DNA from: a virus
Strand: one strand, 5' to 3'
Length of the DNA: 64,000 bases
Virus record (IMG/VR): IMGVR_UViG_3300040758_000113
This document shows, in pieces, positions 13,667 to 62,678 of this stretch (its first letter is position 1; every line of letters begins with the position of its first letter). The translations under genes and the position numbers were made by a program. The notes under the pieces are model-generated. The model worked only from the letters and a program-made list of their open reading frames with translations, ran no database searches and was not told the origin of the DNA.

Positions 13667-13672
13667 ATATTT

Positions 13673-14735: not shown

Positions 14736-14741
14736 CTAATC

Positions 14742-14902: not shown

Positions 14903-14977
14903 TGGGGTGACTGAGGGGAATCGAACCCCCGTATCCTGATTCACAGTCAGGCACTCTGCCACTGAGTTACAGTCACC
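14903..14977 (-). tRNA. tRNA-His(GUG) with G-1
   Basis: loop CUGUGAA; extra 5' G opposite C73. Confidence 0.8.
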
Positions 14978-40417: not shown

Positions 40418-42631
40418 ATGCCGACACCACTCACAGGAGTAAACGTAGCTGCGCAGGTTGTCCCGTTCACCGACGCCGACACCTTCCCGACGCACGAGGC
40501 TATCTACGGCCTCGGGGGATGGCGTGAGGTAGACGACTACACCGCCCGTGACGCTATCCCCCAGCTTCGTCAAGAAGTCGGCATGATGGTGTACGTCCGC
40601 TCCGACCAGACCTTCTGGCAGTTGGTCACCGTGGGGTCGCCGGGCACCTACTCCCAAGTTCAGATGGGTTCCTCGGGAGCGACTGGGCCAACTGGGTATA
40701 CCGGCTACACTGGCCCCGGCAATTTTACGGGTTATACAGGGTATTCTGGGCCGACCGGCTACACCGGGTTCACGGGCTATACCGGCCCCGGTAACTTCAC
40801 AGGGTTCACTGGGTATACGGGTTACACGGGAGCAAGTGGCTACACGGGGTATACCGGCCCCGGCAACTTTACTGGGTTTACAGGGTACACCGGATATTCC
40901 GGCCCGAGCGGGTACACTGGCTATACCGGGCCGGGTAACTTCACAGGTTACTCTGGGTACACGGGATACAGTGGGTTCACAGGCTACACGGGCTTTACCG
41001 GTTATACGGGATACCTCTCTGCCACGCCTCCAGCCGTGGTGCAGGCGCAGGCTGTCAAGTCCAACTCCACCTCGTTCACCATCACCTTGGCTACCACGCC
41101 GGTAGCCGGGAACACGCTCCTCTTCTTCCTTGAGGGCAACTACTACGGGGGGACGGTCACCCCACCGGCAGGCTTGACGCAGCAGACTTCCTACTCGTCC
41201 GGCTCGGACATCGTCGTCACCGTGTGGTCAAGGACGGTGATCGGCGGTGATGGCGAGACGTGGGCAGGAAGCGTCGGCGTCAACAACGGCAATATGTATT
41301 GGAGCGTGGTGGAGGTCGCCGGTACGCCCTCGCTCGTCTTCGCCAGCGGCATAGCCACGATTAACAACGGTGCAGGCACGCTCACGTCCTCCACCATCAG
41401 CATCAATACCGCCGCCACGGTCTTCGGCTCGTTCTGCTGCAACAGGGCGGCGGTCTCCTACGCATTCTCGTTCAATACCCCTCCCCTTAGCTCTCCCTAC
41501 ACCAACACCATCACCTTCAGTGGCGGCTCGGGGTTTGACGGGCAGCAGTTCTGCCTCGGCTACGCATCGTCGGCAAGCATCCCCGTGGCACCCATCGTGG
41601 CGAACTTCAATACCCAAGACCCTGCCGCCACCGCCTACTATGCCTCGGTCATCTGCTCCGTGCTGCCCGTGGGAGCACAGGGACCCACAGGCTACACGGG
41701 ACCCAGCGGGTATACCGGCTATAGCGGGTTCACCGGATATACGGGTCCGGGCAATTTCACCGGTTACACTGGATACACCGGCCCAACCGGGCCGGGAGCG
41801 TTCACCGGCTACACCGGTTACACGGGCGCTGGAACAACTGGTTATACGGGCTATACCGGGCCGGGGAATTTTACGGGGTATACGGGGTATTCCGGCTATA
41901 CTGGAGATACTGGCCCGCCCGGTTCGGCGTCTTCCACAGGTGCGACGGGGTATACGGGTTACACAGGGCCGAACATTACTGGATATACCGGCTACACTGG
42001 GCCATCTAGCGGCAGCACCTACCCGTTTTCTGGCCTCACCCCGCCGACCACCTCCAGCTTCTTTTGGGTCAACCAAGGAACGTCCACGCTGATAGCCCAG
42101 AATAACATGCTGGCACTCAGTGCCACAGGTAACGGGGCGGACAACATCCACTTCTATGGTGTAAACCTCCCGGTCACTCCTTGGACGGTCATTGCGGCTC
42201 TCATCATCAAACCCCCCATGTTCATGTACAGCACCAGTACCATTTACAACGGCAATTGGTGGGAGGGTATTGCTTTGTCGGACGGGACGAAATTCAAGAC
42301 GTTTGACATCGGCAAGGGAAACAACGCTGTGCCGGTATTGGAAATAGACTACTACACCACTACCAGCGCCTTCTCCCACAATGTTGCAACTTCCATGTAC
42401 ATCTTCCCGCCACTTTTCTGGATGAAGATTCATGACGACGGCAGCACCCGGACTTACTGGTACAGCACTGACCCGACGAATCTCGATTGGCAGCAGGTTT
42501 ACTCGGAGACCCACACCAACGACGTGACTCCGACCATGGCGGGATACGTCATCAATCTGTATGGAGCAAACTTGAACGGCATTACCGTCACTACCGGGGC
42601 GTTCCTAAGCTGGCAACTACTGAGTTCATAG
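40418..42631 (+). CDS. tail-fibre-like protein with two collagen-like G-X-Y (GYT) repeat blocks
   Basis: GYTGYTGPGNFTGYTGYSGPTGYTG... repeats at ~aa 90-190 and 420-500. Confidence 0.75.
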   Translation: MPTPLTGVNVAAQVVPFTDADTFPTHEAIYGLGGWREVDDYTARDAIPQLRQEVGMMVYVRSDQTFWQLVTVGSPGTYSQVQMGSSGATGPTGYTGYTGPGNFTGYTGYSGPTGYTGFTGYTGPGNFTGFTGYTGYTGASGYTGYTGPGNFTGFTGYTGYSGPSGYTGYTGPGNFTGYSGYTGYSGFTGYTGFTGYTGYLSATPPAVVQAQAVKSNSTSFTITLATTPVAGNTLLFFLEGNYYGGTVTPPAGLTQQTSYSSGSDIVVTVWSRTVIGGDGETWAGSVGVNNGNMYWSVVEVAGTPSLVFASGIATINNGAGTLTSSTISINTAATVFGSFCCNRAAVSYAFSFNTPPLSSPYTNTITFSGGSGFDGQQFCLGYASSASIPVAPIVANFNTQDPAATAYYASVICSVLPVGAQGPTGYTGPSGYTGYSGFTGYTGPGNFTGYTGYTGPTGPGAFTGYTGYTGAGTTGYTGYTGPGNFTGYTGYSGYTGDTGPPGSASSTGATGYTGYTGPNITGYTGYTGPSSGSTYPFSGLTPPTTSSFFWVNQGTSTLIAQNNMLALSATGNGADNIHFYGVNLPVTPWTVIAALIIKPPMFMYSTSTIYNGNWWEGIALSDGTKFKTFDIGKGNNAVPVLEIDYYTTTSAFSHNVATSMYIFPPLFWMKIHDDGSTRTYWYSTDPTNLDWQQVYSETHTNDVTPTMAGYVINLYGANLNGITVTTGAFLSWQLLSS

Positions 42632-43401: not shown

Positions 43402-43493
43402 ATTGGAGACTTCAAAATAGTCTACCATAGCTTTTCATGGGTGGTTGAAGAGGGGAGCCCGCCTTGGCTCCCCTCGAAAAGCGAGAACCAACT

Positions 43494-44147
43494 ATGGTTG
43501 TATGTCTCTACAGGTACCCTCACCCGTTTATTCAAGATAAATGGTTGTATGTAGGACAAGGTATTGACCGTGACAAACGGCATCGTTCTGGAAAGTCTTC
43601 TTTTGGAAGAAGATTCCAAACTCTATTTCCTAACGCTACTCTACCCCAACCTGTAAGGTGGGAAGAAACCGCTAATAATTGTCTTGACGCCAATTGTGCT
43701 GAAATTTTAGCCATGTTCAAATATCACACTTGGAGAGGATACCCTGGTGGTATGAACCTTACCTTTCCCGGCTCCCATGATTATAAAAACATCTCTAGAC
43801 TTGGGGGGATTATGCAACCTCGGGAAGCAAAAATTAAAGGGGGGAAAAGTCAATCCCGAGAGGCAAGGATAAAAAACTGGAAAAAATACGCCGATTCAAC
43901 TCCTCTGTCACTTCAGAAGCGGGTCTCTCACATTATCGCAGTTAAAAATGGAACTGAAACAGCTCGTGAAAATGTTAAAAGCGGGCAAGCCTCCAATCTT
44001 GGTAAGAGTGGGTTAGGGGGACGAACAGTTGCAAAAATACCTGGCCATATGGCAGTTCTAAACCGTATTGCTATGTGTCTCCGTTGGAACGTCCACCGTG
44101 GCAAGCCCTGCACCTGTGGAAAACACCAACTCTCCAATAAATTTTAA
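43494..44147 (+). CDS. GIY-YIG-like homing endonuclease with C-terminal GKPCTCGKH motif
   Basis: VCLYRYPHP...WLYVGQG; C-terminal RWNVHRGKPCTCGKH shared with 47671..48363. Confidence 0.6.
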   Translation: MVVCLYRYPHPFIQDKWLYVGQGIDRDKRHRSGKSSFGRRFQTLFPNATLPQPVRWEETANNCLDANCAEILAMFKYHTWRGYPGGMNLTFPGSHDYKNISRLGGIMQPREAKIKGGKSQSREARIKNWKKYADSTPLSLQKRVSHIIAVKNGTETARENVKSGQASNLGKSGLGGRTVAKIPGHMAVLNRIAMCLRWNVHRGKPCTCGKHQLSNKF

Positions 44148-44158
44148 AATAACCAGTA

Positions 44159-46645
44159 TTGATAACTGAAGGGAAAGGAAGAAAGCACCCTTCTCTCTGC
44201 CGCAAGTCAACGGGGTGCGTTTCAGTATGGGCGCACCCCGTGCATTTTACGCATCAAATAGGAAACGAACTACGGAACTTATCATGTAATGAGGAACCGG
44301 AAATTACCCTGATGCTTAGACGAGAAGCAGTGCCAAGAATGCCTAAAAAGCAGTGCAAACGGCTTGACCCTAACATCAAGAGCGAGGCTGAGGAAGAACT
44401 TGCCAGCAGCCTAAAGCATCTTATCGTCGGACAGACACGGGCAATTGAGGTACTCGTAGACGCATACGAAACCTTCCGTGCTGGTTTAGCCCCGCCTGAC
44501 CATCCTGTCGGAAATCTAATATTCCTCGGTCCCACCGGTTGCGGGAAGACCTACATCATTGAAGTAATGGCGGAGCTTCTCTTCGGCACCAAAAAGGCTC
44601 TCAAAAAAGTTGATTGTGCAGAATTTCAACACTCTCACGAGATTTCCAAATTGGTGGGGTGTTTCATTACGGGAACACGGGTGATGTTTCCCGGAGGCAC
44701 TGTTCTACCTATAGAAAAAGTCGAAAAAAACGCTAGCATAAGTGGGGAAAATGGGGAACCGCACCCTGTTATTGAAACCCATAGCCACGAATATGCCGGA
44801 GAAATAGTAAAACTAACGGCTGGAAACACCAACATACCCGTGGGATGCACTCCTTGGCATGAAATAAGGGCCATTCAGGACCCATGCACGAAAAACCGGG
44901 CGACGACAAAGAGGGGACGGCTCCTCAGCACGTTTTGCTCACCGAATAATCTTAAAGATATAGCGGCGGGAGACCTTAAAGCGGGGGATGTAGTGGTATA
45001 CCCTCGCCATAAATCTTCCCTCCAAGACGTAACCCTCGACTTAGCCGAATATACTAGGGGCCTTCCCAGATTTAAGTCTGATAACAAAGACATCTGGTCA
45101 ACGGCGACGAAAAAAAAGCTCCCCCGCTTTATACCTGTAAGCTCTGATTTTATGCGCTTGGCCGGATTTTACGTTAGCGAAGGTGGAAACTCCAAAAGCA
45201 AGAAATCCATCAATTTTACATTCGGAAAACACGGGCAGGACAGCCCGTGCATTCAAGAGGTGAGAGAGCTTATATACAGGGTGTTTGGGGACGTTCACAT
45301 AAGGGTGAAAGAGCGAAAGAGCAGTTATCGGATATACCTTTCCTCTCGACCCATAAGTCTTATGATGACTGACCTTTTTGGTGACCATGCTCTTCGCAAG
45401 CGTTTTCCAGCGTGGGTCTCCGACTTACGCCCAGAACTAGCCTACGACTTTTTAGATACGGCAATCTTGGGGGATGGGGGGAAGACTGTTTGCCGCCGCA
45501 TTGACTACGCCACAAGCTCCGAAACTTTGGCTTTCCAGATACAATTCCTCCTTCATAACTTGGGGTACGCAGTCCAAATGCAGGAGCAACACCCGAAGGA
45601 TAAGCGGGGGTATAAGGCATCCACTCGTTACCGGCTATACGTAGCCGGAGACCAAATAGCACAGTTTGCCAGTAACCTCCGCATAGTCGGGAAAAGCCTC
45701 AACCTTCTAAACTTGGGAAATTCGGGAATTCAACGTATGTCTTATGTGGATGATGACTATATCTACACCCGAATAAAAAAGATTGAACGAGAACTGTACA
45801 AGGGGATGGTGTACGATTTATCCATAAAAGATAAATCATACTATATGGTTTGTTTTCAAGTACATAACTCTCCTCCGGGTTATCTAGGACACCGGGATAC
45901 ACCAGCCTACTTACGTCAGGAAAGTCTGGATGCCCACCACACCGAAGAGTTAAAATTGACACTTTTACTCTTTGACGAGTTTGAGAAATCTAACGACGCC
46001 CTGTGGAACTTGTTACTTGGAATACTTGACAAAGGCACACTTACCTTGGGTGACAACAAGCAAAGCACCTTCGATAAATGCCTCATCATCATGACGGGAA
46101 ATCTCGGCTCCCGAGAAATGCAATATCTCGCCCGAGGTGGATTGGGGTTTGCCGGGTCTTCCACAAAGAGCAGTGAGGAGTTCAACAAAGAAGTGGAGAC
46201 AGCAGGACTGGAAGCCGCCAAGAAACGCTTCACCCCGGAGTTCCTCAACCGCATAGATGAGATAGTGGTGTTTCACTCCTTGGATAAGAAGCAACTCAAA
46301 CAGGTGGTGGAACTGGAAATCGAACAGGTGCAGAGCCGGGTGTTAAAGATGCGAGACCTCCGGCAGTTTGTCTTGGAGTTCACCCCCGCCGCCAAAGACC
46401 TGCTGATAACCCAAGGCACGGACTTAAAGAACGGGGCACGTCCTCTCAAGCGGATAATAGAGAAGCTGGTAGTGAAGCGGCTTTCCCGTTTTCTTAACAC
46501 CAAACAAGTCAACATGGGAGACCTCATCGTAGTGGATAAAGACAACGAAGACCTTAGTTTCACCCGTGTTGCCGAGGGTGTACTGGTCGCCGAAGATGTT
46601 GCTGTTAACGAGGAAGCCTCTGCTACCAAAGCTGCTACCAGCTAA
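44159..46645 (+). CDS. Clp/Hsp100 D2-type AAA+ ATPase interrupted by an intein
   Basis: LIVGQTRAIEVLVDA...GLAPPDHPVGNLIFLGPTGCGKT; SKLVG|C...HN|SPPGYLGH junctions. Confidence 0.8.
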   Translation: MITEGKGRKHPSLCRKSTGCVSVWAHPVHFTHQIGNELRNLSCNEEPEITLMLRREAVPRMPKKQCKRLDPNIKSEAEEELASSLKHLIVGQTRAIEVLVDAYETFRAGLAPPDHPVGNLIFLGPTGCGKTYIIEVMAELLFGTKKALKKVDCAEFQHSHEISKLVGCFITGTRVMFPGGTVLPIEKVEKNASISGENGEPHPVIETHSHEYAGEIVKLTAGNTNIPVGCTPWHEIRAIQDPCTKNRATTKRGRLLSTFCSPNNLKDIAAGDLKAGDVVVYPRHKSSLQDVTLDLAEYTRGLPRFKSDNKDIWSTATKKKLPRFIPVSSDFMRLAGFYVSEGGNSKSKKSINFTFGKHGQDSPCIQEVRELIYRVFGDVHIRVKERKSSYRIYLSSRPISLMMTDLFGDHALRKRFPAWVSDLRPELAYDFLDTAILGDGGKTVCRRIDYATSSETLAFQIQFLLHNLGYAVQMQEQHPKDKRGYKASTRYRLYVAGDQIAQFASNLRIVGKSLNLLNLGNSGIQRMSYVDDDYIYTRIKKIERELYKGMVYDLSIKDKSYYMVCFQVHNSPPGYLGHRDTPAYLRQESLDAHHTEELKLTLLLFDEFEKSNDALWNLLLGILDKGTLTLGDNKQSTFDKCLIIMTGNLGSREMQYLARGGLGFAGSSTKSSEEFNKEVETAGLEAAKKRFTPEFLNRIDEIVVFHSLDKKQLKQVVELEIEQVQSRVLKMRDLRQFVLEFTPAAKDLLITQGTDLKNGARPLKRIIEKLVVKRLSRFLNTKQVNMGDLIVVDKDNEDLSFTRVAEGVLVAEDVAVNEEASATKAATS
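44660..45868 (+). mobile_element. intein (403 aa) with LAGLIDADG homing endonuclease domain
   Basis: Cys1 after SKLVG; terminal HN then Ser; LAGFYVSEGG and LDTAILGDGG motifs. Confidence 0.75.
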
Positions 46646-46705: not shown

Positions 46706-47326
46706 ATGGGAAACTTGTGTGAATGTGGATGCGGGACGGTTGTCAAAAACCGCTTCGCTCTTGGTCATCATTTGCCTATGAACAGGGTAGGGCAGTTGTT
46801 CGGAAACTGGAGAGTCCTTGCTCCCGCCACTCCTGTTCATTATAAATGTGCAACTTACACTCGTTTTCACCGTCGTTGGCTTTGTGAATGCCAATGTGAA
46901 AAGAAAACTACAAAAACGGTTTCTGACAATCAACTTATGACCGGAGGAGGAACAAAGTGCTGTTCTTTCCGTTGGACTAATGGTAAAGCTTCAAAAAGAC
47001 CGTATGAGGCCCTCTTTATCTTGCTCACAAAAACAGCAAAACATAGAAACATACCATTAGACTTAACTTACGAGCAGCTTCTTTCCTTTATATCTGTAAC
47101 TTCTTGCCACTACTGCGGGGCTCCCGTCTCATGGAAGAAATATGATGTCAGTAGGAGTGGGCACAGATACAACCTAGATAGGAAAAACAATGAACTACCC
47201 TATACATTAGAGAACTTAGTAGTATGCTGCAAGCGGTGCAACTATGCTAAAGGACGTTGGTTTACCTATGAGGAGTGGGTGGCAATGACTGCTGCTCTCA
47301 GGAGCCTAAAATGTTCAACTGGATAA
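46706..47326 (+). CDS. HNH endonuclease
   Basis: LDRKNNELPYTLENLVVCCKRCN. Confidence 0.7.
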   Translation: MGNLCECGCGTVVKNRFALGHHLPMNRVGQLFGNWRVLAPATPVHYKCATYTRFHRRWLCECQCEKKTTKTVSDNQLMTGGGTKCCSFRWTNGKASKRPYEALFILLTKTAKHRNIPLDLTYEQLLSFISVTSCHYCGAPVSWKKYDVSRSGHRYNLDRKNNELPYTLENLVVCCKRCNYAKGRWFTYEEWVAMTAALRSLKCSTG

Positions 47327-47670: not shown

Positions 47671-48363
47671 ATGTTCTATACTTACATGTGGTTACGTGAC
47701 TACCCATGTCCAGTTTGTGGACAGGTGGGATGCCCCTACTATGTTGGTAAAGGACACGGAAGACGAGCATTTGTAAAACATAAAGTAGGCAATAGATATT
47801 TTTCTCCTCCAACTAATCCTGATTGTATCTTAACTCAGGAGTGGCCAAACGAAGTCCACGCATTGGATGGAGAGAAATTCTTAATAGCTATGTATGGGCG
47901 AATAGACCAAGGAACTGGGTGTCTAAGAAATGGGACTGACGGAGGAGATAGGTTATGTAATCCATCCTCGGAGATTCGTAAAAAGATGGCAAAAGCCGGT
48001 AGAAAAAGTGTAGAAAACGGTCGTATCTATCTCCTTGCAACCAAGGAAAGCTGTAGTAAAGGAGGAAAGATTGGTGGAAAAATAACTGGTAGAATACAAG
48101 GCAGAAAAAATGTAGAGACTGGTCACCTTGCTTCTATTGTTACAAAAGAAAGTTGTAGTCGGGGAGGAAAAACTGCAATAACCAAGATGAATCATGAGGC
48201 TCATGTTCGTGGCGGCAAGGTTGGCGGCAAATTGAATGGTCAAAAGAATGCTAAGAATGGGGTTCTTATCAAAGCTTCTTGCCAACGATGGAACATCAAT
48301 CATGGTAAGCCTTGCACCTGCGGCAGACATCCTAGCCCTCAATCCTCAATCCTCAACCAGTAA
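47671..48363 (+). CDS. GIY-YIG homing endonuclease with NUMOD3-like repeats
   Basis: MFYTYMWLRD...PYYVGKG; repeated KESCSKGGKIGG; C-terminal QRWNINHGKPCTCGRH. Confidence 0.7.
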   Translation: MFYTYMWLRDYPCPVCGQVGCPYYVGKGHGRRAFVKHKVGNRYFSPPTNPDCILTQEWPNEVHALDGEKFLIAMYGRIDQGTGCLRNGTDGGDRLCNPSSEIRKKMAKAGRKSVENGRIYLLATKESCSKGGKIGGKITGRIQGRKNVETGHLASIVTKESCSRGGKTAITKMNHEAHVRGGKVGGKLNGQKNAKNGVLIKASCQRWNINHGKPCTCGRHPSPQSSILNQ

Positions 48364-50690: not shown

Positions 50691-51077
50691 ATGACAACTA
50701 AGGAACGAGAACAAAATTGGCGTAAGTTTTCAAAATACTACACCACAACTAAGGGCCGGGCGGCTTTCATGCTCAACAATGCTCGGAAAAGAGCAATAAA
50801 GGATAAAGTGCAGTGTCTTATAACTCAGGACTGGATTAGAAAAAAATTAGAACGGGGAGTATGTGAAGTAACTAACCTACCCCTTGAGTTAAATGTTGGT
50901 AATGGTAAAGGAAGTAGAACAAACTCATTTAGTCCCTCCTTAGACCGCAGAAATCAAACAGGAGATTATTCACCAGAAAATACTCGCCTTACTTGTTGGA
51001 TTTATAATAGGGCACGAGGTGCTTTTCCTGATGTTGATTTTGACAGGATGGTAAACGCACTAAAAACTAAATGTTAG
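50691..51077 (+). CDS. HNH endonuclease (HNH_3-like)
   Basis: SLDRRNQTGDYSPENTRLTCWIYNRARG. Confidence 0.6.
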   Translation: MTTKEREQNWRKFSKYYTTTKGRAAFMLNNARKRAIKDKVQCLITQDWIRKKLERGVCEVTNLPLELNVGNGKGSRTNSFSPSLDRRNQTGDYSPENTRLTCWIYNRARGAFPDVDFDRMVNALKTKC

Positions 51078-54000
51078 TCTTGAGGTTCTTGGTGGTGACA
51101 AACTCCTTGGGCATGGGCCGGTCATCGGCGGCGGTCATTTGAGAAGCTCCCCGGTAATGGGGTGCTTCTTCGGTGTTCTCCAACCCCTTGAGGTAACCAT
51201 GCTGGGACTCGTTGAAGTTGATAATGCGGACCTTGTCCCAGTCAATCAGTTGATTGAGTTTGTGTGCCCCGCCCGACCCCAGCACCGGCTGATTGAACAG
51301 AAGCACTTGGTGGGGAACCTGCGTAGTGCCGTGCTTATCGTAGATACCATCGTATCCGGCGTCAACGAGTTCTCTCTGCGTCGGTGCCTTGCTAATAAAC
51401 CGATGACTTTCTCCTCCCATGGAGGATACCCACTCGCCTTGCGGATTCTTCACTGCCAACTTTAGAGGACGGGTGAAATGAAGCTCCATGAAAGCTCCCT
51501 GCGCCCGGCCCGCTGCCCATGGGCTGGTGCGGTTCATGGACGGGTGGGTATAGACCCCCACCCCCATCTCGTTGTAGCCCTCGGTCTCACCGTAGAAGCT
51601 CTTCTGGGCCTTTATTTTCTTCGCCCGGTAAGCCGAGGTGCCGTGGTAGAGCGGACGGCTCCACGTCGCCTCCTCAGCCTTGACCGGCTCCGCCGCTGAC
51701 CGCTTCTGCAACCTCTGTTCCCGCTCCGCTATCTCCTCGGGTGTCATGTGGTAAATGGTGGTGGTACCCTCACGAGTCCAATAGCCGGGGAGACCAGAGT
51801 TGTTCCTCCAAGCTCCGGGGGGCAAACCCTCCTGCGAGATTTCCTCTTCTTCCTCTTCCGGCTCATTGATGGGTATGATGTCCCGGTCACTGACGAGCAG
51901 GATATCATCGCCGTCCGGGTAGTTGTGGGGGATAATCCAGCCGGGGAGGACTTGGGCAAGGTCTTCCACATAATCATGCCCACTTAGCGGGCTGGGGAAG
52001 TTGAACATATCAGCGAGTCTTTCAAGGTCTTCCGAACCATCTATCCTTGGGAGACGGATAGGCTTGGTGACTTGGAATTTGAGAATGCGTTGCTCGCCCT
52101 CCTCGCCGCCATGCCACGCCTTAAAGTACTCGGCAACAGATTCAGAGGTGCTAAACCATGCCGGGGTTTGGATGTCCATTGCCGGGAAATCTTCCGTTGT
52201 GCCGTGGTAGAGGATGGTACCCTTGGAGATAAGATAGGTCTTGCGCCAACGCCTCCACCACTCGCCGGAACTCCACTTGTGAACGGAGCCGGGCGGCATC
52301 CAGTCAACCACCTCATAAGCTTCGGTGTAGGGGTACTTTCGCTTGATGGCTTCTATCACCTCGGGAGGAGTAAATTCAAGGTCGAATCTCCTTCCTCCCC
52401 ATGGACCAAAAACCACCGTATCGTCTAGGCTCTCTTCTGAGGGGTTCTTAGAGTAGTCATAAGTCTCGGCATCCGTCCAGACGTAGATTTGCCTCTTAGC
52501 TTTGTCAATGTAAAAGTTGCCCCTTGGGATGCGGTCAAACTCCGGTCCTCGGTCGGGGATTCCCATACGAGAGAACCAGTCGGTGTGTGCCATTCCCCTC
52601 GGGCTAAGGAGAACCTTGCCCTCCCATATCGCCCACGGGTATCCTACCAATCCAGCTATCTTCATAGCCGACCGTAAGTCGGGGTGCATGTCCCGTTCAA
52701 TGTCGGTGCTGCCCTTGCAATCCATGCAGAAATAGGTGTCAGTGGTCGCAGAGTGCATCGCCCACGCTGTCTGGTCCGAACCACAACGGGGACAGAAACC
52801 TCCCCATTCCGAGGCGGTCTTGGCAGTCTTAGCGGTCATCAGGGGTTGAATCACGTCCTTCCCCCAGTACCGGTAATCAGCATCCACAGCGGGAGACACG
52901 AGAGCGAAGTAGGTCACTGTTCCTTGGTCCACGACGTAGGGAATATATCCGCTGGCGGACGCTCCCAGCCGTGCCATGCGTGCATACAGGGCGGCTCTAC
53001 CAACGCCCTCCGCCGAAAAGTACATCGCCGGGGGACGGAGGTCGTGCAGGGCGCTCATGACCAGACCACCCACCTTGGTGAACACCTCGGCAACGTGTCC
53101 TGTGTTGGTAGTCCCATAGGCACCAAGCAGGTTGGCATCGGCGTTCAAAAAGAGAAAGCTGACCGCTTTGTTACCAAAGGTAGGAAGACCCGGCTCGGCA
53201 TCCGTCCAACTCTGCATGACAGCGGTGTAGGGGATGTATCCCTTTTTTGTCTCAGGGGCCTTGATGTAAAATTGGGAACGCCAACGGCCTCCGCTGGCAT
53301 ATTGCCAGTCTTCCCAATCGGCTGGCTCCGGGACTTGCCGGGCGGCGGTCTTAGGCTGGGCATATGTCACATCGCTATCATAAACACCGTAGTCCATGCC
53401 ACTCCTGCTCCACTTCACCGTCAGAAACCGCTTGTTGCCGCCGTGGTACTTCTGACGAACATCCTCACCCGCATCATTGGTCTCCATGATATCCCGAATG
53501 TCCAACAGGGTACCTTTTTCTCCCGTGGACTTACGGATGACCGTGCAACCGATTTCACCCGGCTTGGCAACCTTGATGTATTTCGGAGGGACAGCGCCAT
53601 GCAGGATGACAGTGTTGGGGGACATCCCCTGCTCGTAGTCGTAATGGTAATCGTCATCCCCCAGTACATGAGCGAGATACTCCCGTGTCTCGCCCTCGGC
53701 GATATCAGTCTCCTTACCGGCAAAGGGTAAGCTACTGGGAGGAAGCTCTCGCTTCATGGCCTCGGTGTCAATCTCTAACACGGTGTCGTAGTAGCCGGAC
53801 TCATCCCAGTCGGTGCTGGTGAAGACCGCCGCTCCCGTGCTTCGGTTACTCAACCCCCGAGTCTCATCCATAGGGAGCAATCCCTGTTGCAGAATGGTCT
53901 CTACCTTGTCCTCATCCGTCCCATGATACAAGGTGGAGGGGTAGGCCCAAAATTCCTTGTTAAATTTTTCTTCCGAATCAGGCAGGAACTTCTCGGCATT

Positions 54001-55104
54001 GTAATCGAAGAGGAGGTCTCGAACGTCAGACCACATGGTGAAGGTTCCGTCATCATCCACGGCGACCACCGCACCGCCCACCTCATAAAACTTGCCACCA
54101 TTGTAGGCGAGCGCCATCTCCGCTCCATGCTGAGCGAGGATGGCTTCCACTTTTGGCAAGTCACCCTCCACCTCATAGAGGGCGTTTTCCAAAGTGTTGT
54201 ATCCTGCGTATCCCCGCTTGCTGACAAAGAATGCTTTCTTGAGAGCGGCGGTGAACTCTGCCCTCTGTGGGTCGTATTGTTGTGCAATTGCTGACTTAAT
54301 TTGGTTAGGCTCGAAGGCTATCCAAGCAACTCCACCTTCCACCAGATTCTTGTAACGGATACCGTCGTGCCCTGCGGCTTGCAGCTTTGCTCTTGCTTGC
54401 ATGGCGAGGTCATAGGCAGCATCTTTGAGCATCTCCTCTTCCCCCTCTTCGGGGTGCATACGCTCGAACAGCCACTCATTCTGTCCCTGCCGGAAAGCTG
54501 TATCGGTATCGTACTCTCGATACCACTCATCGGCTTTCTGTGGGGAACCCTCCTCATCCTCCGGGCTTATGCCATCGGCTATCATGGCGGACTGCAAAAG
54601 CTCCTCTTCATACCCACCTATCTTCCCCTGATAGATGAACTGGAGCATGTTCTTCTCGCTGCCAAAGTCTTTGGGGTTGGTGATACGGAGATACACGGGA
54701 ATGACACGGGGTTTTTCTTCATTGCCCTCATACCGGGTCTGAGTCCACCCCTTGCCCATGGCGAACATATCAGCGACCTTGGGGTCCACGGCGAAATGTG
54801 CTCCCATGAAAGCGCTGGGGTCCCAGCCGCTACCGGAGGACAGCGGCTCGCCTGTCTCCGTGGTCACAACGCCGTCTGTGCTGAACTCCTCGAAGTCCAC
54901 CGATGACCGGGCGCCGAAGGCCCGGAGCGGTCGGCCTTGCTGGTCCACCACTTTGGACCCGGCAAACCAACGCCGGAAATTGGGGGACTCCACACCGGCT
55001 CCTATTTTTGGTGAGGCAGTTTTTCTGGGCCGAGTAATCTGGTGCGCTACCCGAGCCAACTCCTCATCCGTTATGGAGTTAGCATCCTTTTCGAGTAAGT
55101 CCAT
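51067..55104 (-). CDS. giant multidomain protein (1345 aa) with three hhYHGT ART/Tpt1-fold domains, Zn-ribbon and shared GPEFDRIPRG module
   Basis: STLYHGTDEDKVETILQQGLLP; ILYHGTTEDF...WFSTSESVAEYF; PLYHGTSAYR; CPRCG...CMDCKG. Confidence 0.8.
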   Translation of the reverse strand: MDLLEKDANSITDEELARVAHQITRPRKTASPKIGAGVESPNFRRWFAGSKVVDQQGRPLRAFGARSSVDFEEFSTDGVVTTETGEPLSSGSGWDPSAFMGAHFAVDPKVADMFAMGKGWTQTRYEGNEEKPRVIPVYLRITNPKDFGSEKNMLQFIYQGKIGGYEEELLQSAMIADGISPEDEEGSPQKADEWYREYDTDTAFRQGQNEWLFERMHPEEGEEEMLKDAAYDLAMQARAKLQAAGHDGIRYKNLVEGGVAWIAFEPNQIKSAIAQQYDPQRAEFTAALKKAFFVSKRGYAGYNTLENALYEVEGDLPKVEAILAQHGAEMALAYNGGKFYEVGGAVVAVDDDGTFTMWSDVRDLLFDYNAEKFLPDSEEKFNKEFWAYPSTLYHGTDEDKVETILQQGLLPMDETRGLSNRSTGAAVFTSTDWDESGYYDTVLEIDTEAMKRELPPSSLPFAGKETDIAEGETREYLAHVLGDDDYHYDYEQGMSPNTVILHGAVPPKYIKVAKPGEIGCTVIRKSTGEKGTLLDIRDIMETNDAGEDVRQKYHGGNKRFLTVKWSRSGMDYGVYDSDVTYAQPKTAARQVPEPADWEDWQYASGGRWRSQFYIKAPETKKGYIPYTAVMQSWTDAEPGLPTFGNKAVSFLFLNADANLLGAYGTTNTGHVAEVFTKVGGLVMSALHDLRPPAMYFSAEGVGRAALYARMARLGASASGYIPYVVDQGTVTYFALVSPAVDADYRYWGKDVIQPLMTAKTAKTASEWGGFCPRCGSDQTAWAMHSATTDTYFCMDCKGSTDIERDMHPDLRSAMKIAGLVGYPWAIWEGKVLLSPRGMAHTDWFSRMGIPDRGPEFDRIPRGNFYIDKAKRQIYVWTDAETYDYSKNPSEESLDDTVVFGPWGGRRFDLEFTPPEVIEAIKRKYPYTEAYEVVDWMPPGSVHKWSSGEWWRRWRKTYLISKGTILYHGTTEDFPAMDIQTPAWFSTSESVAEYFKAWHGGEEGEQRILKFQVTKPIRLPRIDGSEDLERLADMFNFPSPLSGHDYVEDLAQVLPGWIIPHNYPDGDDILLVSDRDIIPINEPEEEEEEISQEGLPPGAWRNNSGLPGYWTREGTTTIYHMTPEEIAEREQRLQKRSAAEPVKAEEATWSRPLYHGTSAYRAKKIKAQKSFYGETEGYNEMGVGVYTHPSMNRTSPWAAGRAQGAFMELHFTRPLKLAVKNPQGEWVSSMGGESHRFISKAPTQRELVDAGYDGIYDKHGTTQVPHQVLLFNQPVLGSGGAHKLNQLIDWDKVRIINFNESQHGYLKGLENTEEAPHYRGASQMTAADDRPMPKEFVTTKNLKTNI

Positions 55105-58100
55105 ATTTCCTCGGGTTCTTCAAGATGTACTGTGTCACTTCTGCCACATCTTTCTCATTGCCGTACAAGGGACGCTCGCCTTCTCCAGATTCGGGTATCT
55201 CCCCCATAAACTGGTTCATGAAGTCGTCGGGTTGATAAGGACCTCCATCCAAGCTCACCTCGGGGTTCGCCGGGTCCATGTCAAAATCCTTCGCCATGAC
55301 CGCTGGTGACCGCTGACCCTTGATGTCGTAGGTCTTTCCGTCCGGTGCCATGCAGTAGACGTGGGTCATGTTCCAGTCCACCAAATTGCCGCTATCTTCA
55401 AGCTCTGCAATCTGTTCTGGACTCATCTCCCCAATATTATGCCATGGGTCGCCTTCGGGGTCGGACATAAAGTACACGACACCTCGATTCAATCGGGCCA
55501 ATGCCACAGCAAATATACCGCACCCCTCGGTCATGTAATAGCCGGGGTCAAACGCACTGGAATCATCCCCGTGTCCAGGCTGGAGGAGTCCGAGGCCGGG
55601 GAGAGCGGCGGTCTTGGAAGCCACGCTCAGGTAGGCCATGTTTTGGGGCATCGGCTCATTACCCCAAAAAACCTCTTGAGCTTCTTGCAAAGTCCACAGG
55701 TAATACATCTCATCTTGGGTTGAAACTGAGACCTTACGAACGCCTCTCGGCAGATTCTCCAAGCCCATACCTATCAGGTTCTTGGTATCGGCATCAAGAG
55801 TCTTTGACTCAAAGAAGATGGTGTTGCCGGTGTTAGAGAATCCAACCCGAATGTTCCCCTTGGCAATGACCTGCTCTTTCCGCTGGGTGTCGTTCTTTAT
55901 CTTCTTGGCTTCTTCCTTGGTTAAAAACCCGAGGCGCAGGGCGCTGTCTTCGTGCTTTTCACCGAAAGCGTTGGGGAGGAAACGACCATCGGGGGTCAGC
56001 CATCCCTCACCTTCAACGGAGAAGGAAGCGGTCTTGGTTGTAGCCTCCCACAAAGTTTTCATGGGATTGGGGAGACCCAACTCCTCCCGGTAATCATACT
56101 GCCCGGCGTGCGGTCCACCTTTTACATGGATGATGAAGTCCACCATCCGACCTTCCACCTGTTGGTACTTGTCCCAAAGTGGTTGGTCTCTTTCCACCAT
56201 ATCCCATGCGGGAGTGCCCTTGGGGAAATCAATGACCACATCAATGTCAGACTTGGGTTTGAGTTCGTCACGAGCGGCGGAGCCTGCCAAGGAGATGCGC
56301 TGGCACTCAGGGTATATCTTGCGTATATCCGCTACCATCTCAGCGATAGTGGATTGAGTCTCGGGCTTGAGCGGCTCTCCGCCCGGCTCCGTGCTCCACG
56401 CCTCCTTGGGAATAAGGGGGGCATTCCTACCCTTATTGAACTCCTTGTTTAACTCTTTTGCCTCCTCCACGCCGCCGTATTGCTCCCACCGCTCATATTC
56501 ATTCATGCCGGTGAAGAGCCGATTCAAGGTGGTCCTTCCGCCTTGCACCAGCCAGCTTGACAGGTCGCTGCGGGGGTGGGAAAACTGCAAGACCTTATCA
56601 AGCGCTTGTAACTTGTCTTCATCACTCTTGGCAAGGTACACCCCTTGCACGAGATTCATCAAACGCCCCTCAGCTTGGTCACTTATCCTCCAGCCGCCTT
56701 CCGGGGTATCAAAGTAGTCTGGTGCCCTCTTAAAGTAGTCCTCCGGGAATTTCTTGGATATACCTTCCCTTTCCAGCATCTCCAAAGCATACTCTTCTGG
56801 CCCCATCGCACTATGACCGCAGAGGATGGAATTGACGTAAATCTTAAAGCAGTTGTCAATGACGGTTTCCGCTATCTGATTAAGACCCGCTGAGTCCCGG
56901 ACAAACCCCGTCTTCATGTAGTCTTCCCAAATTTTGATGAGCCGGGCGGCGGGCACGACATTCCACTGCTGACGATACCTCTTCTGGCGGACGTGCTGCA
57001 TGTATTCGGTGATTACTTCTACGGCTACCACGCTCTCCCGGTCAAAGAACGCCTCTGCCGCATCGTAGTAAGCATCGTCACTGGCAACTTTTTTGAAGGC
57101 TACAATACCCGTGTCGGAGCTTTCCGTATCAACGAATATAAACTCCTTCAGATTGTACCGATTCTTGATGTATTCCACTACGTCATTGGGCGTGTATCCC
57201 CCGGCGTTCTTGACGAGGTGAACGACTCTGTGCCCTCGGTCTACAATCGCTACCCCTCGTTCTATTCGGTCGTAGGAAGGACCGGAGAACGGTAGGCTCA
57301 GTTCTTCCAACCACTGGGCATGGCTCTTGCCCCCAACCTGTACGGTGGTGTAAAGCTTTCCCTCATGACGAACCCACATGATGACTGTCTTTTTAATAGC
57401 AGCGTCCTTGAAACCAAACCCGTCATCTTCATCATAGACTTCGGGGAGGTCTTCCTCCGTCAATTCCTTCACGTACCGGAAATCCTTACCCTCCACCAAC
57501 TGAGTGCGAGGAGTGATGAGAATGGCGCTATATGCTTTGTCTCCACCGCTAGGGTCCATGGCATACTGCACATCATCACACAGATAGTCATCTTCGGTGG
57601 GATATATCTCCACCACCCACGCCTTGGAGTCACGGCTGTAATCTTCTGTCAGCCGACTGAACCAATAGTCGGGGTCACCCACATGGACGGCCCGTAGATG
57701 TGGGTAGTCGTTTGCGGAGCCTGCCAAGCCCACGGTGTCCAACATGTGAGTCTTGAGGACCGGCTGGCGCTCCCACACCACCCGCTCGAAGTTCCCCATC
57801 TCCTCCGCCAAGGAGATAAGCTCGTGCTCGTATTCCAGTTTCTTTACTTCCTCGGTGTAGGCCGGGGATAGAGAGGCGGTCAGGGGGTGCTCATTGTGGG
57901 GATTCTGAACTTGGTCGTCCTCGTAGAAATCATTATGCCGGTCCGGGAACGGCTCGTCATATGACCATCCCTGCTGACCGGATATCCCGAGGTCATCTAT
58001 GGCTTTTCCAGTGGGTAGAGCCGCCTGCTTGGGGAGCGATATAGTCTTGATGAGCTTGATATTTTGTGGAGGAATATCCCAGAGATACTTCCACGCCGTG

Positions 58101-59764
58101 GGGTATTCGTGCCGAACCTCGAAGTCCGGCCAAAACGTTCCTTCCCCTTGTGGGACTTTCACTTCCCAGATGTCACAAGCTTGTCCTGTGTAGGGCTGCT
58201 GCTCACCTACCCAGTTCTCGGCATCAGTGAGGCTACCGAACAAATACACCGCTGGCTCGTGCTCCACATCCTCATACTGCTGCTTGTGGTACATCTGCAA
58301 TCCATTTTTTAGAATGGAGTTCCGGCTACGGCGACGGCTGACATGGTAGGCAATCTGAGGGTATTCAAACTCATCGGCTGCCCATTTGCCCATTATCCGA
58401 GGAGCAACCTCATCTACAAACTCAAAGTCCCGGAGTGAGGGATACTTCTGCTTTATCTTGGCTACTACTTCCTCGGGGGTAAAGTCAAAGTCAACCTCTC
58501 CTGTAATGGATTCACCTGCTCTTGACCCCTTGGGTGCGGCATCGGTGTACAGCCGGACTCGCTTCTTCTTCTTATTGACTTCCGCCCTTCCCCGAGGAAC
58601 TTTATCAAACTCCGGTCCCCATGAAGGAATGGGGTCATGCCGTTGAGAATGCTGATTGAGTTCTTGAAACCATTTAACATGCCAGAGACCCATGTCATCG
58701 GTCAACAGCACTTTGTTATGCCAAGTTGCCCACAGTAACTCAAAATCGCAAGGCTCATAAGCGACTACGGGAATGCCCTTACCCCGGAAGGGAAGTTTAC
58801 CCTGCTCCTTGGGCGGCTTCCACTCGGGTTCTGCTGGGGCGTGGAACTGGTTATAGAACTCCAACAGGTCTTCATCAGAGTGAAGGTCCAGAACGTTCTG
58901 ATATGTGCGGTCCAGCTTGATAGCCTCTTTAACTGGCATGACCGCCGCTACCTTAACCGCCTGCGGGTTCTCCACCCAAAACTCATTGCCGAATCCCCGG
59001 CTTACCTGATGGTAGGATTCCCTCGGCACTTCCGACATGTCAATGACGGCGACATACGCCCGGTCGCTTTCGTAGTAATCCGTCCAATTCTCCAAGTGAG
59101 AAGTAACCATCAACTTTCCCGGCACAGGTGTCCCGCCTCCCATGCTGGACATATCCCGAGGACCCTTCGCCGGGTCGATAGTGAAGTTGGGGTTGTCGGT
59201 GACATGGAAATACAGTCCATGCTTAATGTCTATGGAGAAGTCATGCTTGAAGTCCTCGAAGGTAGGAGCCTTGCGTGTTTCCGCCTTAAGCCCATTCAAC
59301 AGGGGATGAGACCACCTTGTCTGTGTGGACGCCGTTTTATCCAATAAGGGATACCTCTGGATAAACTCCTCAGCCCATCTCCTCACCCTCGGCATACAAG
59401 ACGCCATTGATTCCCTATGCTTGGGGTTATTGAAAAATTCACTATCGTGAAGATAACTAACCTCTCCCGAAAACCCCTCAGCAAGGTCGAGAGGCTTACC
59501 ATCTGGAGTGATGTTGTACTGATGCCCCCAGTTTCCTTGAATGTCAAGCCCGAAAATCGTCTTTCCGAACAGAGAGATAAATTTGCAGGCACCCGACATA
59601 TCCGTAGGGTTGGATTTACCTAACTCTTGGGCACGCTCTTTCCACTTCTCGGCTAAGAACACCTTCGCCTTTGAAACCCACTCGGGAGTAACTGGGTATA
59701 TGGTTAGATTATCAGGCATAGTCTGTAACCTTTTCGGGGTCGGACGTATCCTCGTCGGGGTCAC
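55079..59764 (-). CDS. giant multidomain protein (1561 aa) with MNT-type nucleotidyltransferase domain, ART-like domain and two copies of shared module
   Basis: RISLAGSAARDELKPKSDIDVVIDF; IAYHVSRRRSRNSILKNGL; WGPEFDKVPRGR and FSGPSYDRIERG modules; GTG start after GAGGGGGG. Confidence 0.8.
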   Translation of the reverse strand: MTPTRIRPTPKRLQTMPDNLTIYPVTPEWVSKAKVFLAEKWKERAQELGKSNPTDMSGACKFISLFGKTIFGLDIQGNWGHQYNITPDGKPLDLAEGFSGEVSYLHDSEFFNNPKHRESMASCMPRVRRWAEEFIQRYPLLDKTASTQTRWSHPLLNGLKAETRKAPTFEDFKHDFSIDIKHGLYFHVTDNPNFTIDPAKGPRDMSSMGGGTPVPGKLMVTSHLENWTDYYESDRAYVAVIDMSEVPRESYHQVSRGFGNEFWVENPQAVKVAAVMPVKEAIKLDRTYQNVLDLHSDEDLLEFYNQFHAPAEPEWKPPKEQGKLPFRGKGIPVVAYEPCDFELLWATWHNKVLLTDDMGLWHVKWFQELNQHSQRHDPIPSWGPEFDKVPRGRAEVNKKKKRVRLYTDAAPKGSRAGESITGEVDFDFTPEEVVAKIKQKYPSLRDFEFVDEVAPRIMGKWAADEFEYPQIAYHVSRRRSRNSILKNGLQMYHKQQYEDVEHEPAVYLFGSLTDAENWVGEQQPYTGQACDIWEVKVPQGEGTFWPDFEVRHEYPTAWKYLWDIPPQNIKLIKTISLPKQAALPTGKAIDDLGISGQQGWSYDEPFPDRHNDFYEDDQVQNPHNEHPLTASLSPAYTEEVKKLEYEHELISLAEEMGNFERVVWERQPVLKTHMLDTVGLAGSANDYPHLRAVHVGDPDYWFSRLTEDYSRDSKAWVVEIYPTEDDYLCDDVQYAMDPSGGDKAYSAILITPRTQLVEGKDFRYVKELTEEDLPEVYDEDDGFGFKDAAIKKTVIMWVRHEGKLYTTVQVGGKSHAQWLEELSLPFSGPSYDRIERGVAIVDRGHRVVHLVKNAGGYTPNDVVEYIKNRYNLKEFIFVDTESSDTGIVAFKKVASDDAYYDAAEAFFDRESVVAVEVITEYMQHVRQKRYRQQWNVVPAARLIKIWEDYMKTGFVRDSAGLNQIAETVIDNCFKIYVNSILCGHSAMGPEEYALEMLEREGISKKFPEDYFKRAPDYFDTPEGGWRISDQAEGRLMNLVQGVYLAKSDEDKLQALDKVLQFSHPRSDLSSWLVQGGRTTLNRLFTGMNEYERWEQYGGVEEAKELNKEFNKGRNAPLIPKEAWSTEPGGEPLKPETQSTIAEMVADIRKIYPECQRISLAGSAARDELKPKSDIDVVIDFPKGTPAWDMVERDQPLWDKYQQVEGRMVDFIIHVKGGPHAGQYDYREELGLPNPMKTLWEATTKTASFSVEGEGWLTPDGRFLPNAFGEKHEDSALRLGFLTKEEAKKIKNDTQRKEQVIAKGNIRVGFSNTGNTIFFESKTLDADTKNLIGMGLENLPRGVRKVSVSTQDEMYYLWTLQEAQEVFWGNEPMPQNMAYLSVASKTAALPGLGLLQPGHGDDSSAFDPGYYMTEGCGIFAVALARLNRGVVYFMSDPEGDPWHNIGEMSPEQIAELEDSGNLVDWNMTHVYCMAPDGKTYDIKGQRSPAVMAKDFDMDPANPEVSLDGGPYQPDDFMNQFMGEIPESGEGERPLYGNEKDVAEVTQYILKNPRKYGLTRKGC

Positions 59765-61213: not shown

Positions 61214-61921
61214 TTAAGAGTCTAGTGGTAGTGCTTCAACAAACTTCTGTCCCGTACCTCGGCTTTGATTTTTAGCTAGATTACTCATTTTGGCACGGTA
61301 TTCGGGGTTTGTCCATCGCTCTCTTTGAAGTGCTGCTTGTTTTTTCCTTCTCTCTGGGTCAGACCATGTTTTCTTATTAACCGTGCTCATTTTACTGTGA
61401 AAATCAAGATTTTCAAAAGCCTTCATACGATTAGAACGAGAATAAGGGTCCGCCCATGAATCCCTAATCGCTTGAACCCGATTAGAAAAAGACTCAGGTT
61501 TAGCCCAGTCAGCTTTGAGATTTGCCGATTGCTTGGCTCTTTTTTCGGGGTTAGCCCAAGCTCGTTTAACCCCTTCACTCATTTTAGCACAAGTTTGAGA
61601 AGAATGCAGTCCGGTAAACCCCTCCCCTCCACGACAAAGATTGTAGCCATACTCAGGGTCTTGAGCACGAAGGAACTTGATGAAGTCCCGCTCGGTCTCA
61701 TCAAGCTCGGCTTTAGCTTGGATATCGGAACGGAGGGCGTGGATGGACCAAAGATGAGGAAAGGGGTGTTTACGCATGGAATTATAAAGACGAGAATTTC
61801 CCCCTCGTCCGTGTCTGGCATCTGAAAATTTTTGTTGAAGGTACTTCTTTAGATTATTACCTGTATGTTGACCGACATAATACTTTCCTGTTTCATGATT
61901 TACAATCAAATAGATAAACAT
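61214..61921 (-). CDS. GIY-YIG homing endonuclease (paralog of 24675..25523)
   Basis: MFIYLIVNHETGKYYVGQH; about 75% identity over N-terminal 100 aa with the other copy. Confidence 0.8.
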   Translation of the reverse strand: MFIYLIVNHETGKYYVGQHTGNNLKKYLQQKFSDARHGRGGNSRLYNSMRKHPFPHLWSIHALRSDIQAKAELDETERDFIKFLRAQDPEYGYNLCRGGEGFTGLHSSQTCAKMSEGVKRAWANPEKRAKQSANLKADWAKPESFSNRVQAIRDSWADPYSRSNRMKAFENLDFHSKMSTVNKKTWSDPERRKKQAALQRERWTNPEYRAKMSNLAKNQSRGTGQKFVEALPLDS

Positions 61922-61964: not shown

Positions 61965-62678
61965 TCATTGAATATTTTCTAGCCAATCTGCGGCATCCTG
62001 CGTGGAAATGAGGCTTTTAGACCAGTTTGGGCGGTCGTGTGGACCCATCTCCAAGGTCACTTCTCCCTTGAATGGCATCATCAACAGAGCCTCGGTGATG
62101 AGTCGGCGGCTCTTTGTGACATTTCGTGCCTGTATGGAAAACTGACCAGCATCCCGGTCAACCCGGAGGTGCCCATTCTCCATGGCAAGGTTCTCGGCAT
62201 ATCCGAGGTAATCCTCTCCCCCCTGCTCCTCCACCTCTGAATCATCCATGCCGCACAGGTCTTCCGCCATCGCCCACTCTCCGTGGAGTTCGTAGGGGTG
62301 AGTCATGGGGAGAGGTCGCCCGTCCCGAGATATCCAACCTCCATTTTGAGAAAGCCTAGACCAATCGGCGGAGCGTTCAGGCCACGGACCGGACGGTTGC
62401 AGAAGGGGATTTACTCTGCGCCGGGCAGCCTTCACCCGGAAGCCTCCCTTTATCTTCCCACCGTAGACTTGCTCTTCTTCATTAACGTGGGGAGTCTTGT
62501 ACAAAGATGAGTCGTAGCCATCAGGAGAGTAGTTAAATAAGAGGCTTTCTAACTCTTTTTTCTCCATTATATTGGGTGAATGAACAAACCACCGCTTTAT
62601 GGAAAGATTGTTATCAATAACATAACGAGCAGCGGTTAGTCCAAGACCGCCTGCCTCTGGTTGTGTTAAATCTCTCAT
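61965..62678 (-). CDS. hypothetical protein (237 aa)
   Basis: ORF. Confidence 0.6.
   Translation of the reverse strand: MRDLTQPEAGGLGLTAARYVIDNNLSIKRWFVHSPNIMEKKELESLLFNYSPDGYDSSLYKTPHVNEEEQVYGGKIKGGFRVKAARRRVNPLLQPSGPWPERSADWSRLSQNGGWISRDGRPLPMTHPYELHGEWAMAEDLCGMDDSEVEEQGGEDYLGYAENLAMENGHLRVDRDAGQFSIQARNVTKSRRLITEALLMMPFKGEVTLEMGPHDRPNWSKSLISTQDAADWLENIQ

Follow-up and report, generated by a model that had tools for sequence, protein, structure and literature searches.

The window analysed here is the whole 64,000-nucleotide stretch of the IMG/VR virus record IMGVR_UViG_3300040758_000113, and its element of interest is an insertion of 403 amino acids in a gene encoding a Clp/Hsp100-type AAA+ ATPase. 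The insertion is very probably a class-1 intein of canonical type that carries a LAGLIDADG homing endonuclease, lies in frame in the single-ring Clp D2-type ATPase gene of a huge phage, and is predicted to splice out of the precursor and to home. The initial annotation of this DNA had proposed a Clp AAA+ ATPase split by a LAGLIDADG intein, and this is upheld by Pfam matches, by the intein blocks A, B, F and G, and by an allele of the same gene in which the site is empty. The coordinates of all features are given in Table 1.

Intein anatomy and predicted splicing

The open reading frame (ORF) 44159..46645 (+), of 828 amino acids, was confirmed to be present, and the insert corresponds to its residues 168-570. 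The insert is in frame, opens with CFITG right after ...HSHEISKLVG and closes with VHN right before SPPGYLGH. Its length, its Cys and VHN ends, and the two LAGLIDADG motifs (LAGFYVSEGG and LDTAILGDGG) named in the initial annotation were all recovered. The Pfam search of the insert gave LAGLIDADG_3 (5e-9) and Intein_splicing (8e-9), and in NCBIfam the insert matched the intein portions of several models labelled 'intein-containing'; the PHROGs search with the intein matched no family. The only solved relative found by sequence was PI-PkoII (PDB 2cw7, E 5e-14), and the match covered the endonuclease domain and block F. A hidden Markov model of the intein family run against the six-frame translation of the window found no second copy.

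Conservation was scored in an alignment of the window intein with 24 relatives (25 members). The Hint-domain blocks A, B, F and G, on whose presence the initial annotation had made its proposal depend, are present and conserved across these members. The features of a class-1 intein thus occur together: an in-frame insertion, Cys1, the TxxH of block B, blocks F and G, the terminal His-Asn pair and a Ser at position +1 of the C-extein. Likewise, there are two LAGLIDADG motifs, each of which ends in an acidic residue (E174 and D272).

The structure of the intein was modelled with AlphaFold from a four-sequence alignment, and the confidence of the model was moderate (mean predicted local distance difference test, pLDDT, of 64). 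The endonuclease core (residues ~130-340) is its best-predicted part, with a pLDDT of 70-91, and shows the alpha-beta-beta-alpha-beta-beta-alpha pseudo-dimeric LAGLIDADG fold. In the Foldseek search, the highest-ranking PDB entries were PI-SceI, the TliVMA intein, PI-PkoII and PI-PfuI, which aligned over ~400 columns; I-DmoI came next, with a match to the core. The full-length matches to PI-SceI and TliVMA had E values of ~1e-11 and a template modelling (TM) score of only ~0.4, and the matches of I-DmoI to the endonuclease core had a target TM score of 0.6-0.7.

Based on the conserved residues and the established chemistry of inteins, splicing would proceed as follows. The precursor of 768 amino acids would be translated, Cys1 would undergo an N-S acyl shift, and the N-extein would move to the side chain of Ser+1. 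Asn403 would then cyclise with the help of His402, which would free the intein, and an O-N shift would give an ordinary Gly-Ser peptide bond. The predicted product is an ATPase of 365 amino acids with the ligated-junction peptide EISKLVGSPPGYLGHR, the same junction sequence as in natural intein-less homologues. The unspliced ATPase should be inactive, because the 403 residues of the intein sit at the base of the translocation loop.

The host ATPase

When the two flanks of the insert were joined, they gave one Pfam AAA_2 match spanning the junction (E 1.8e-32), followed by ClpB_D2-small (2e-16). The joined extein aligned to the D2 and D2-small domains of Clp structures with E values of 4e-58 and below, and free of gaps over the junction to the D2 of ClpC, ClpB and ClpA, where SKLVG/SPPGYLGH (the slash marks the insertion point here and below) stands against SRLVGAPPGYVGH. 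The initial annotation had expected the two extein halves to be contiguous with Clp D2, and the gap-free alignment agrees with the intein-less homologues, which read ...KLVG-SPPGYLGH.... It had also described a single D2-type Clp module with Walker A, a sensor and arginine-finger region and a small domain; this description is confirmed by the two domain matches together with the ATPase motifs and the aromatic pore loop, all of which are typical of an Hsp100/Clp D2-type module.

Compared with the D2 of ClpC, ClpA and ClpB (Staphylococcus aureus ClpC 6em8, Thermus thermophilus ClpB 1qvr), the extein shares Walker A and B, the sensors, the arginine finger and the GY[VL]G loop, whereas it is without the N-domain, D1 and the middle domain and has Ser instead of Ala before PPGY. 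In NCBIfam, the extein matched the D2 half of the ClpB and ClpA models (positions 558-852 of the ClpB profile), and its score against the ClpB equivalog was 241 bits, far below the cutoff of 1232 bits. The 365 amino acids of the extein comprise D2 and D2-small only and not the two rings of class I Hsp100 proteins. The extein is therefore a single-ring Clp D2-type ATPase and not an orthologue of ClpA, ClpB or ClpC, as it has one ring and scores far under the model cutoffs. A ClpB-type disaggregase was considered and set aside on account of the one ring, the missing middle domain and a ClpC-like GF loop.

In Hsp100/Clp proteins, the substrate is gripped by the tyrosine of GYVG, the pore loop of D2. 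In the mature protein, the insertion point separates Gly107 from Ser108 and precedes the tyrosine of this loop by four residues (G/SPPGYLG). The initial annotation had called the site a pore/sensor motif; the pore-loop part of this name is correct, as shown by the GYVG tyrosine, and the sensor part is not. The Ser at position +1 occurs in 118 of the 120 homologues, whereas canonical ClpB and ClpC have Ala there. As Ser+1 is native to this family, splicing would leave no scar.

Unfoldases of the ClpA, ClpC and ClpX type dock on ClpP through a surface loop that contains an [ILV]-G-[FL] tripeptide. All 120 homologues have the tripeptide [L/M]GF, which aligns with the GF of the ClpP-docking loop of ClpC. 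This invariant loop suggests that the ATPase may work with a ClpP peptidase. The ClpP-type serine motif was not found in the window.

Start codon and upstream region

The gene starts at ATG 44339, which replaces the TTG at 44159. The N-termini of homologues P0001, P0002, P0003, P0005 and P0008 (MPKKQ, MAKASKKQ or MNKK) correspond to this ATG, and on 15 public contigs the gene callers predict exactly the product of 768 amino acids that begins there. The 180 nt before the ATG contain frame-shifting indels and in-frame stops in the sister genomes L001 and L005. The TTG start was rejected on these three grounds, namely the N-termini of homologues, the public gene calls and the indels and stops upstream in the sister genomes. 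With the ATG as start, the precursor has 768 and the mature extein 365 amino acids (107 + 258), so the length of about 425 amino acids that the initial annotation gave for the extein does not hold.

The leader of ~180 nt upstream of the ATG (44159-44338, +) is conserved in the sister genomes, though non-coding, and holds an inverted repeat (ACGGGGTGCG...CGCACCCCGT). Its role could be regulatory, or it could act as a terminator for the gene that precedes it. In a promoter and terminator scan around the clp gene, sites were no commoner than in shuffled sequence.

The empty site and the trace of homing

The sister huge-phage genome L001 carries the gene without the intein and is ~93% identical in DNA at this locus and 97% identical in protein. 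The protein of this genome (P0002, 97% identical to the spliced product) and that of a second intein-less homologue (P0001, 86%) read ...KLVG-SPPGYLGHRD..., which is the predicted ligation product. In the DNA comparison, window positions 44154-44658 correspond to L001 positions 9810-10320 and window positions 45869-46595 to L001 positions 10322-11049, which leaves an exact gap of 1209 bp with boundaries precise to the codon. The empty-site DNA of the L001 type contains AAACTGGTGGGTTCCCCACCCGGATACTTGGGA, and the site is centred on AAACTGGTGGGT/TCCCCACCCGGATACTTGGGACAT. P0002 (L001 10001-11011) ends early, with 336 against 365 amino acids, owing to an indel near the 3' end, and its C-terminal tail differs.

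The identical intein-containing precursor was found on 15 contigs from ENA and JGI samples, and the intein-less allele on 6 contigs; the samples that hold the two alleles include ERZ27249816, ERZ27250039 and JGI samples. The occurrence of the precursor on 15 contigs argues that the insertion is not an assembly artefact. In a genome so rich in homing endonuclease genes, one might suspect an assembly chimera, an intron of group I or II, or a free-standing LAGLIDADG gene fused in frame, but the 15 contigs are independent and come from different samples and assemblers. Moreover, the insert is in frame and without a stop, Hint blocks lie at each end of it, and in comparison with the empty site its limits are exact to the codon. 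The Rfam search over the window found only tRNAs, which leaves the intron without support. The chance that one of these explanations is right is next to nil.

As a near-identical sister phage lacks it, the intein looks recently acquired. The differences between the window and the L001 allele were counted in a gap-free alignment and compared with the Fisher test. Around the junction there were 32 differences in 196 nt (16.3%), compared with 26 in 775 nt (3.4%) elsewhere (p = 1e-9), and the first 216 nt of the gene had no difference at all. Almost all of them affect the third position of a codon. In the comparison with the allele of L005, which is more distant, the differences were evenly spread, with no clustering at the junction. 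A tract centred on the junction, with ~100 nt of flank on each side, is the pattern expected of homing from a diverged donor. In such an event, the freed intein, or the endonuclease domain within the precursor, would cut intein-less copies of the gene during co-infection, and repair from the occupied allele would copy the intein together with some flanking sequence.

Several observations weigh against a splicing and homing intein. With regard to homing, the genomes are mosaic, with an identity to L001 that ranges from 67% to 97% over the neighbourhood, so the divergent tract could stem from ordinary recombination. The free-standing endonuclease genes that flank the clp gene could also have driven local gene conversion, and no donor allele with matching flanks was found in IMG/VR viral contigs or in the metagenome scan. 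With regard to splicing, the Intein_splicing match scored 35.9 bits against a cutoff of 35.8 bits, i.e., 0.1 bit over it, the last 60 residues of the intein were modelled with a pLDDT of ~30, and the Hint fold is supported mainly by the motifs and by the family and PDB sequence matches.

The first group of these points fits an intein that splices and whose endonuclease is inactive, so that it would be a fixed, vertically inherited passenger, while the tract would derive from unrelated recombination or from the flanking endonucleases (GIY-YIG-like and HNH genes, the upstream one of which is polymorphic). We consider this unlikely, although it deserves some weight. Both LAGLIDADG motifs keep their acidic residues, which are invariant or nearly so in the family, and the endonuclease core is the part of the model predicted with the highest confidence. 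Furthermore, the tract is centred on the junction and separated from the upstream endonuclease gene by the 216 identical nt, and the intein is polymorphic for presence and absence between proteins that are 97% identical.

The second group of points would suit a decayed insertion that no longer splices, in which case the gene would be a pseudogene or its protein would tolerate or exploit a permanent insert of 403 amino acids. The frame of 2307 nt is unbroken and identical on the 15 contigs, and the residues for all four splicing steps are present and conserved. Function should be lost if an insert stayed permanently in the large AAA+ subdomain, four residues from the pore-loop tyrosine; all of the ATPase motifs are nevertheless retained in the extein. 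There is accordingly little room for a non-splicing insertion, and only a very slim chance can be given to it.

Distribution and recurrence of the site

The exhaustive HMMER search with the intein over 1.84 billion representative proteins gave 2942 hits. The best 26 of these relatives (31-52% identical) are all Clp-type ATPases with the intein at the same site, KL[ILV]G/C...[HS]N/SPPGY; the lower hits, starting with the 27th, lie in unrelated host proteins, DNA polymerase III alpha among them. The occupied relatives (P0121, P0122 and P0124-P0149) have an intein 31-59% identical to that of the window at exactly the same position. Two of them (P0125 and P0145) are full two-ring ClpC/ClpB-like proteins. 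All of the occupied homologues are metagenomic, and their automatic names are 'ClpA', 'DNA polymerase III delta prime subunit' or 'intein/homing endonuclease'. The metagenome scan added one further occupied allele (L013, 47% identical). The site was described in the initial annotation as a classic intein hotspot; such a hotspot is undocumented in the literature searched, but the recurrent occupancy itself was found, in 26 of the 26 best relatives.

In the occupied relatives, the intein is conserved as much as the AAA core or more (e.g., 41% vs 33%), and the identities of the intein and of the AAA core correlate weakly (rho 0.37, p 0.08). All of the extein relatives checked at 54-97% identity are without the intein. 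This sporadic pattern fits the horizontal spread of a site-specific element. The tblastn search of the intein against 50,697 phage records found only a 23%-identical intein of the portal protein of Eggerthella phage LE2-3, and the intein search of IMG/VR viral contigs found nothing.

Pore-loop occupancy is accompanied by a second intein site in the same gene family. In a related phage, the clp gene, which is orthologous and syntenic (P0008, L014 6001-8145), carries a different LAGLIDADG intein in Walker A (GSGK/C...HN/T), and in three other relatives (P0134, P0142 and P0149) Walker A and the pore loop are both occupied by inteins.

These data also bear on whether the intein was co-opted as a conditional switch, such that splicing, and with it the activation of the unfoldase, would await an infection cue such as redox state or temperature. 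The insertion is at the functional heart of the motor, where the unspliced protein would be off, many divergent Clp proteins have an intein at this site, some of them with the second intein in Walker A, and a cysteine (C63) adjoins block B in the window intein and its nearest relatives. However, C63 is not conserved across the alignment of the intein family, close relatives manage without the intein, and polymorphism together with an intact endonuclease is what a purely selfish element would show. Co-option as a switch is thus very improbable.

Comparison with known inteins

The inteins PI-PkoII (Thermococcus kodakarensis DNA polymerase intein 2), PI-SceI, PI-PfuI and TliVMA have the same organisation as the window intein, i.e., a Hint domain interrupted by a LAGLIDADG endonuclease with two motifs, and share with it the catalytic residues Cys1, TxxH, the Asp of block F, His-Asn and a nucleophilic +1 residue. 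They differ in that their identity in structural alignments is 13-16% and their hosts are DNA polymerase or V-ATPase, and the +1 residue of the window intein is Ser. The metagenomic inteins at the same site of Clp proteins are homologous and are alleles of the window intein in the sense used for inteins. Their hosts differ from the phage protein in that the exteins are diverse (AAA core 30-49% identical), some being single-ring proteins with other N-terminal regions, and none of them is curated or named as an intein host, automatic labels aside.

In the intein surveys searched, the only 'Clp' intein was that of the chloroplast ClpP of Chlamydomonas eugametos (Wang and Liu 1997, cited in PMC4760082). 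Its host is the ClpP peptidase, which is unrelated to the AAA+ ATPase, and the intein and its insertion site are unrelated too. Inteins in the P-loop (Walker A) of ATPases were emphasised by Novikova et al. 2016 (PMC4760082). The Walker A inteins in GxxGxGK/T of P0008/L014 and the three metagenomic relatives fit the known preference for conserved ATPase motifs, whereas in the window Walker A is empty and the intein is in the pore loop. A survey of jumbo phages names ClpA and ClpX genes; inteins are treated there separately and belong to genes of other kinds.

No intein in a Clp/Hsp100 ATPase was found in the literature searched, although an earlier listing in InBase or in the tables of the main intein survey is possible. 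Otherwise, the literature that joins inteins with ClpB, ClpA, Clp protease, AAA+ proteins or the pore loop contained only uses as laboratory tools. It seems improbable that this is the first described family of inteins at the Clp/Hsp100 pore loop, spread among huge phages and other uncultured genomes, with both alleles in one phage population and perhaps serving as a post-translational on-switch.

Genomic neighbourhood

The region gave no match to 50,697 phage records at near-DNA level. The identical gene is on a contig of 338 kb (k141_400892) and the closest relatives are on contigs of 317 kb and 364 kb (the latter k141_1180871). From these sizes, together with the tRNA arrays, the collagen-repeat tail-fibre gene, the giant 'polyvalent' proteins and the many homing-endonuclease genes described below, we infer that the genome belongs to an uncultured huge phage, and the assignment stays at that level since neither a capsid nor a terminase gene could be recognised in the window.

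The GIY-YIG-like ORF directly upstream of the clp gene is a second element, beside the intein, with presence and absence among the genomes. This ORF (43464-44147, +) and the ORF 47671-48363 (+) are paralogues that flank the clp gene and have the common C-terminal motif RWN[VI]x[RH]GKPCTCG[KR]H; in the first of them it is the N-terminus that is GIY-YIG-like. With Pfam and PHROGs, at least eight homing-endonuclease genes of the HNH, GIY-YIG or other types were found as free-standing genes in the 64 kb. One of them, the HNH ORF 33917-34543 (-), is within an array of tRNA-Leu genes, and its 3' tail overlaps tRNA-Leu genes. In total, 27 tRNA genes were detected in two arrays, 8555-14976 and 33310-34869 (-), of which tRNA-Arg(cct) (8637-8726) and tRNA-Trp (11163-11252) are unusually long (90 nt).

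The gene at 30809-33241 (+) encodes a protein of 810 amino acids with major-vault-protein domains (MVP_shoulder 8e-22, Vault_3 2e-10) and without a PHROG match. For a phage-like genome, a gene resembling those of vault proteins is unexpected. Two giant proteins are encoded on the minus strand: a 'polyvalent' protein of 1345 amino acids (51067-55104) with an ART-PolyVal ADP-ribosyltransferase domain (1.4e-17), and a protein of 1561 amino acids (55079-59764) with a nucleotidyltransferase domain. Several large proteins near 51067-59764 share repeated C-terminal modules. The tail-fibre-like protein encoded at 40418-42631 (+) has 737 amino acids and long G-[YF]-[TS] collagen-like repeats, and its counterpart in L001 has 1532 amino acids, so the collagen-like repeat region varies greatly in length.

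Table 1. Features of the intein-containing clp gene and of its surroundings in the window (aa, amino acids).
Feature	Position	Strand	Description and evidence
Free-standing homing-endonuclease genes	128-880, 22971-23891, 24675-25523, 27234-27887, 33917-34543, 46706-47326, 61214-61921, 62675-63463		
Free-standing GIY-YIG-like gene	43464..44147	+	directly upstream of clp; absent from L001, present in L005
Spurious 5' ORF extension	44159..44338	+	60 codons, non-coding leader; frameshifts and stops in L001/L005
Precursor gene	44339..46645	+	768 aa + stop; ORF, N-termini of homologues, calls on 15 contigs, non-coding upstream
N-extein	44339..44659	+	107 aa, ends ...HSHEISKLVG; profile match, structure alignment
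Walker A	44528-44551	+	GPTGCGKT, in N-extein
Divergent tract, upstream half	44555..44659	+	17 differences in 105 nt vs L001 allele
Intein	44660..45868	+	403 aa (Cys1 ... His402-Asn403), Hint domain with inserted LAGLIDADG endonuclease; Pfam, NCBIfam, PDB, fold, 1209-bp insertion vs L001
Block A	44660..44674	+	CFITG; Cys1 first splicing nucleophile, invariant in 25 members
Block B	44849..44860	+	T64-P-W-H67 (TxxH); T64, H67 invariant
LAGLIDADG motif 1	45158..45187	+	LAGFYVSEGG, acidic E174; G169, G175, G176 invariant, E174 at least 75% conserved
LAGLIDADG motif 2	45452..45481	+	LDTAILGDGG, acidic D272; G271, D272, G273 invariant; LAGLIDADG_3
Block F	45803..45844	+	GMVYDLSIKDKSYY, D386; G382, V384, D386, Y395 invariant; aligned to block F of PI-PkoII
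Block G	45860..45868	+	VHN, penultimate His402, terminal Asn403; N403 invariant, H402 at least 75% conserved
C-extein	45869..46645	+	258 aa + stop, starts with Ser+1, includes D2-small domain; Pfam, structure alignment
Divergent tract, downstream half	45869..45959	+	15 differences in 91 nt vs L001 allele
Pore loop	45878-45889	+	GYLG
Walker B	45962-45988	+	
Sensor 1	46091-46108	+	
LGF loop	46142-46150	+	
Arginine finger	46238-46258	+	
Sensor 2	46433-46453	+	
Free-standing HNH endonuclease gene	46706..47326	+	directly downstream of clp; Pfam HNH, PHROG endonuclease families

Significance

The element is a textbook intein with an ordinary mechanism, and the understanding of inteins is unchanged by it. 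Its interest lies in an apparently uncatalogued host and site, in the recurrent occupancy of that site, in the second intein site within the same phage gene family, and in the pair of occupied and empty alleles. For the use of inteins, a scarless intein with Ser+1 in a compact ATPase could serve as a splicing tool, and a defined empty-site sequence is now available for the endonuclease. For the annotation of metagenomes, such genes are mislabelled automatically (e.g., as 'DNA polymerase III delta prime'), and their ORF is over-extended.

With regard to the distribution of inteins, the phage gene adds a Clp/Hsp100-type ATPase as host and the D2 pore loop as site, both of which were unseen in the intein literature searched. 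The pore-loop site is recurrent, being occupied in at least 26 sequence clusters. Moreover, the near-identical pair of genomes, together with the tract centred on the junction, provides a clean natural case of intein gain in an uncultured huge-phage population.

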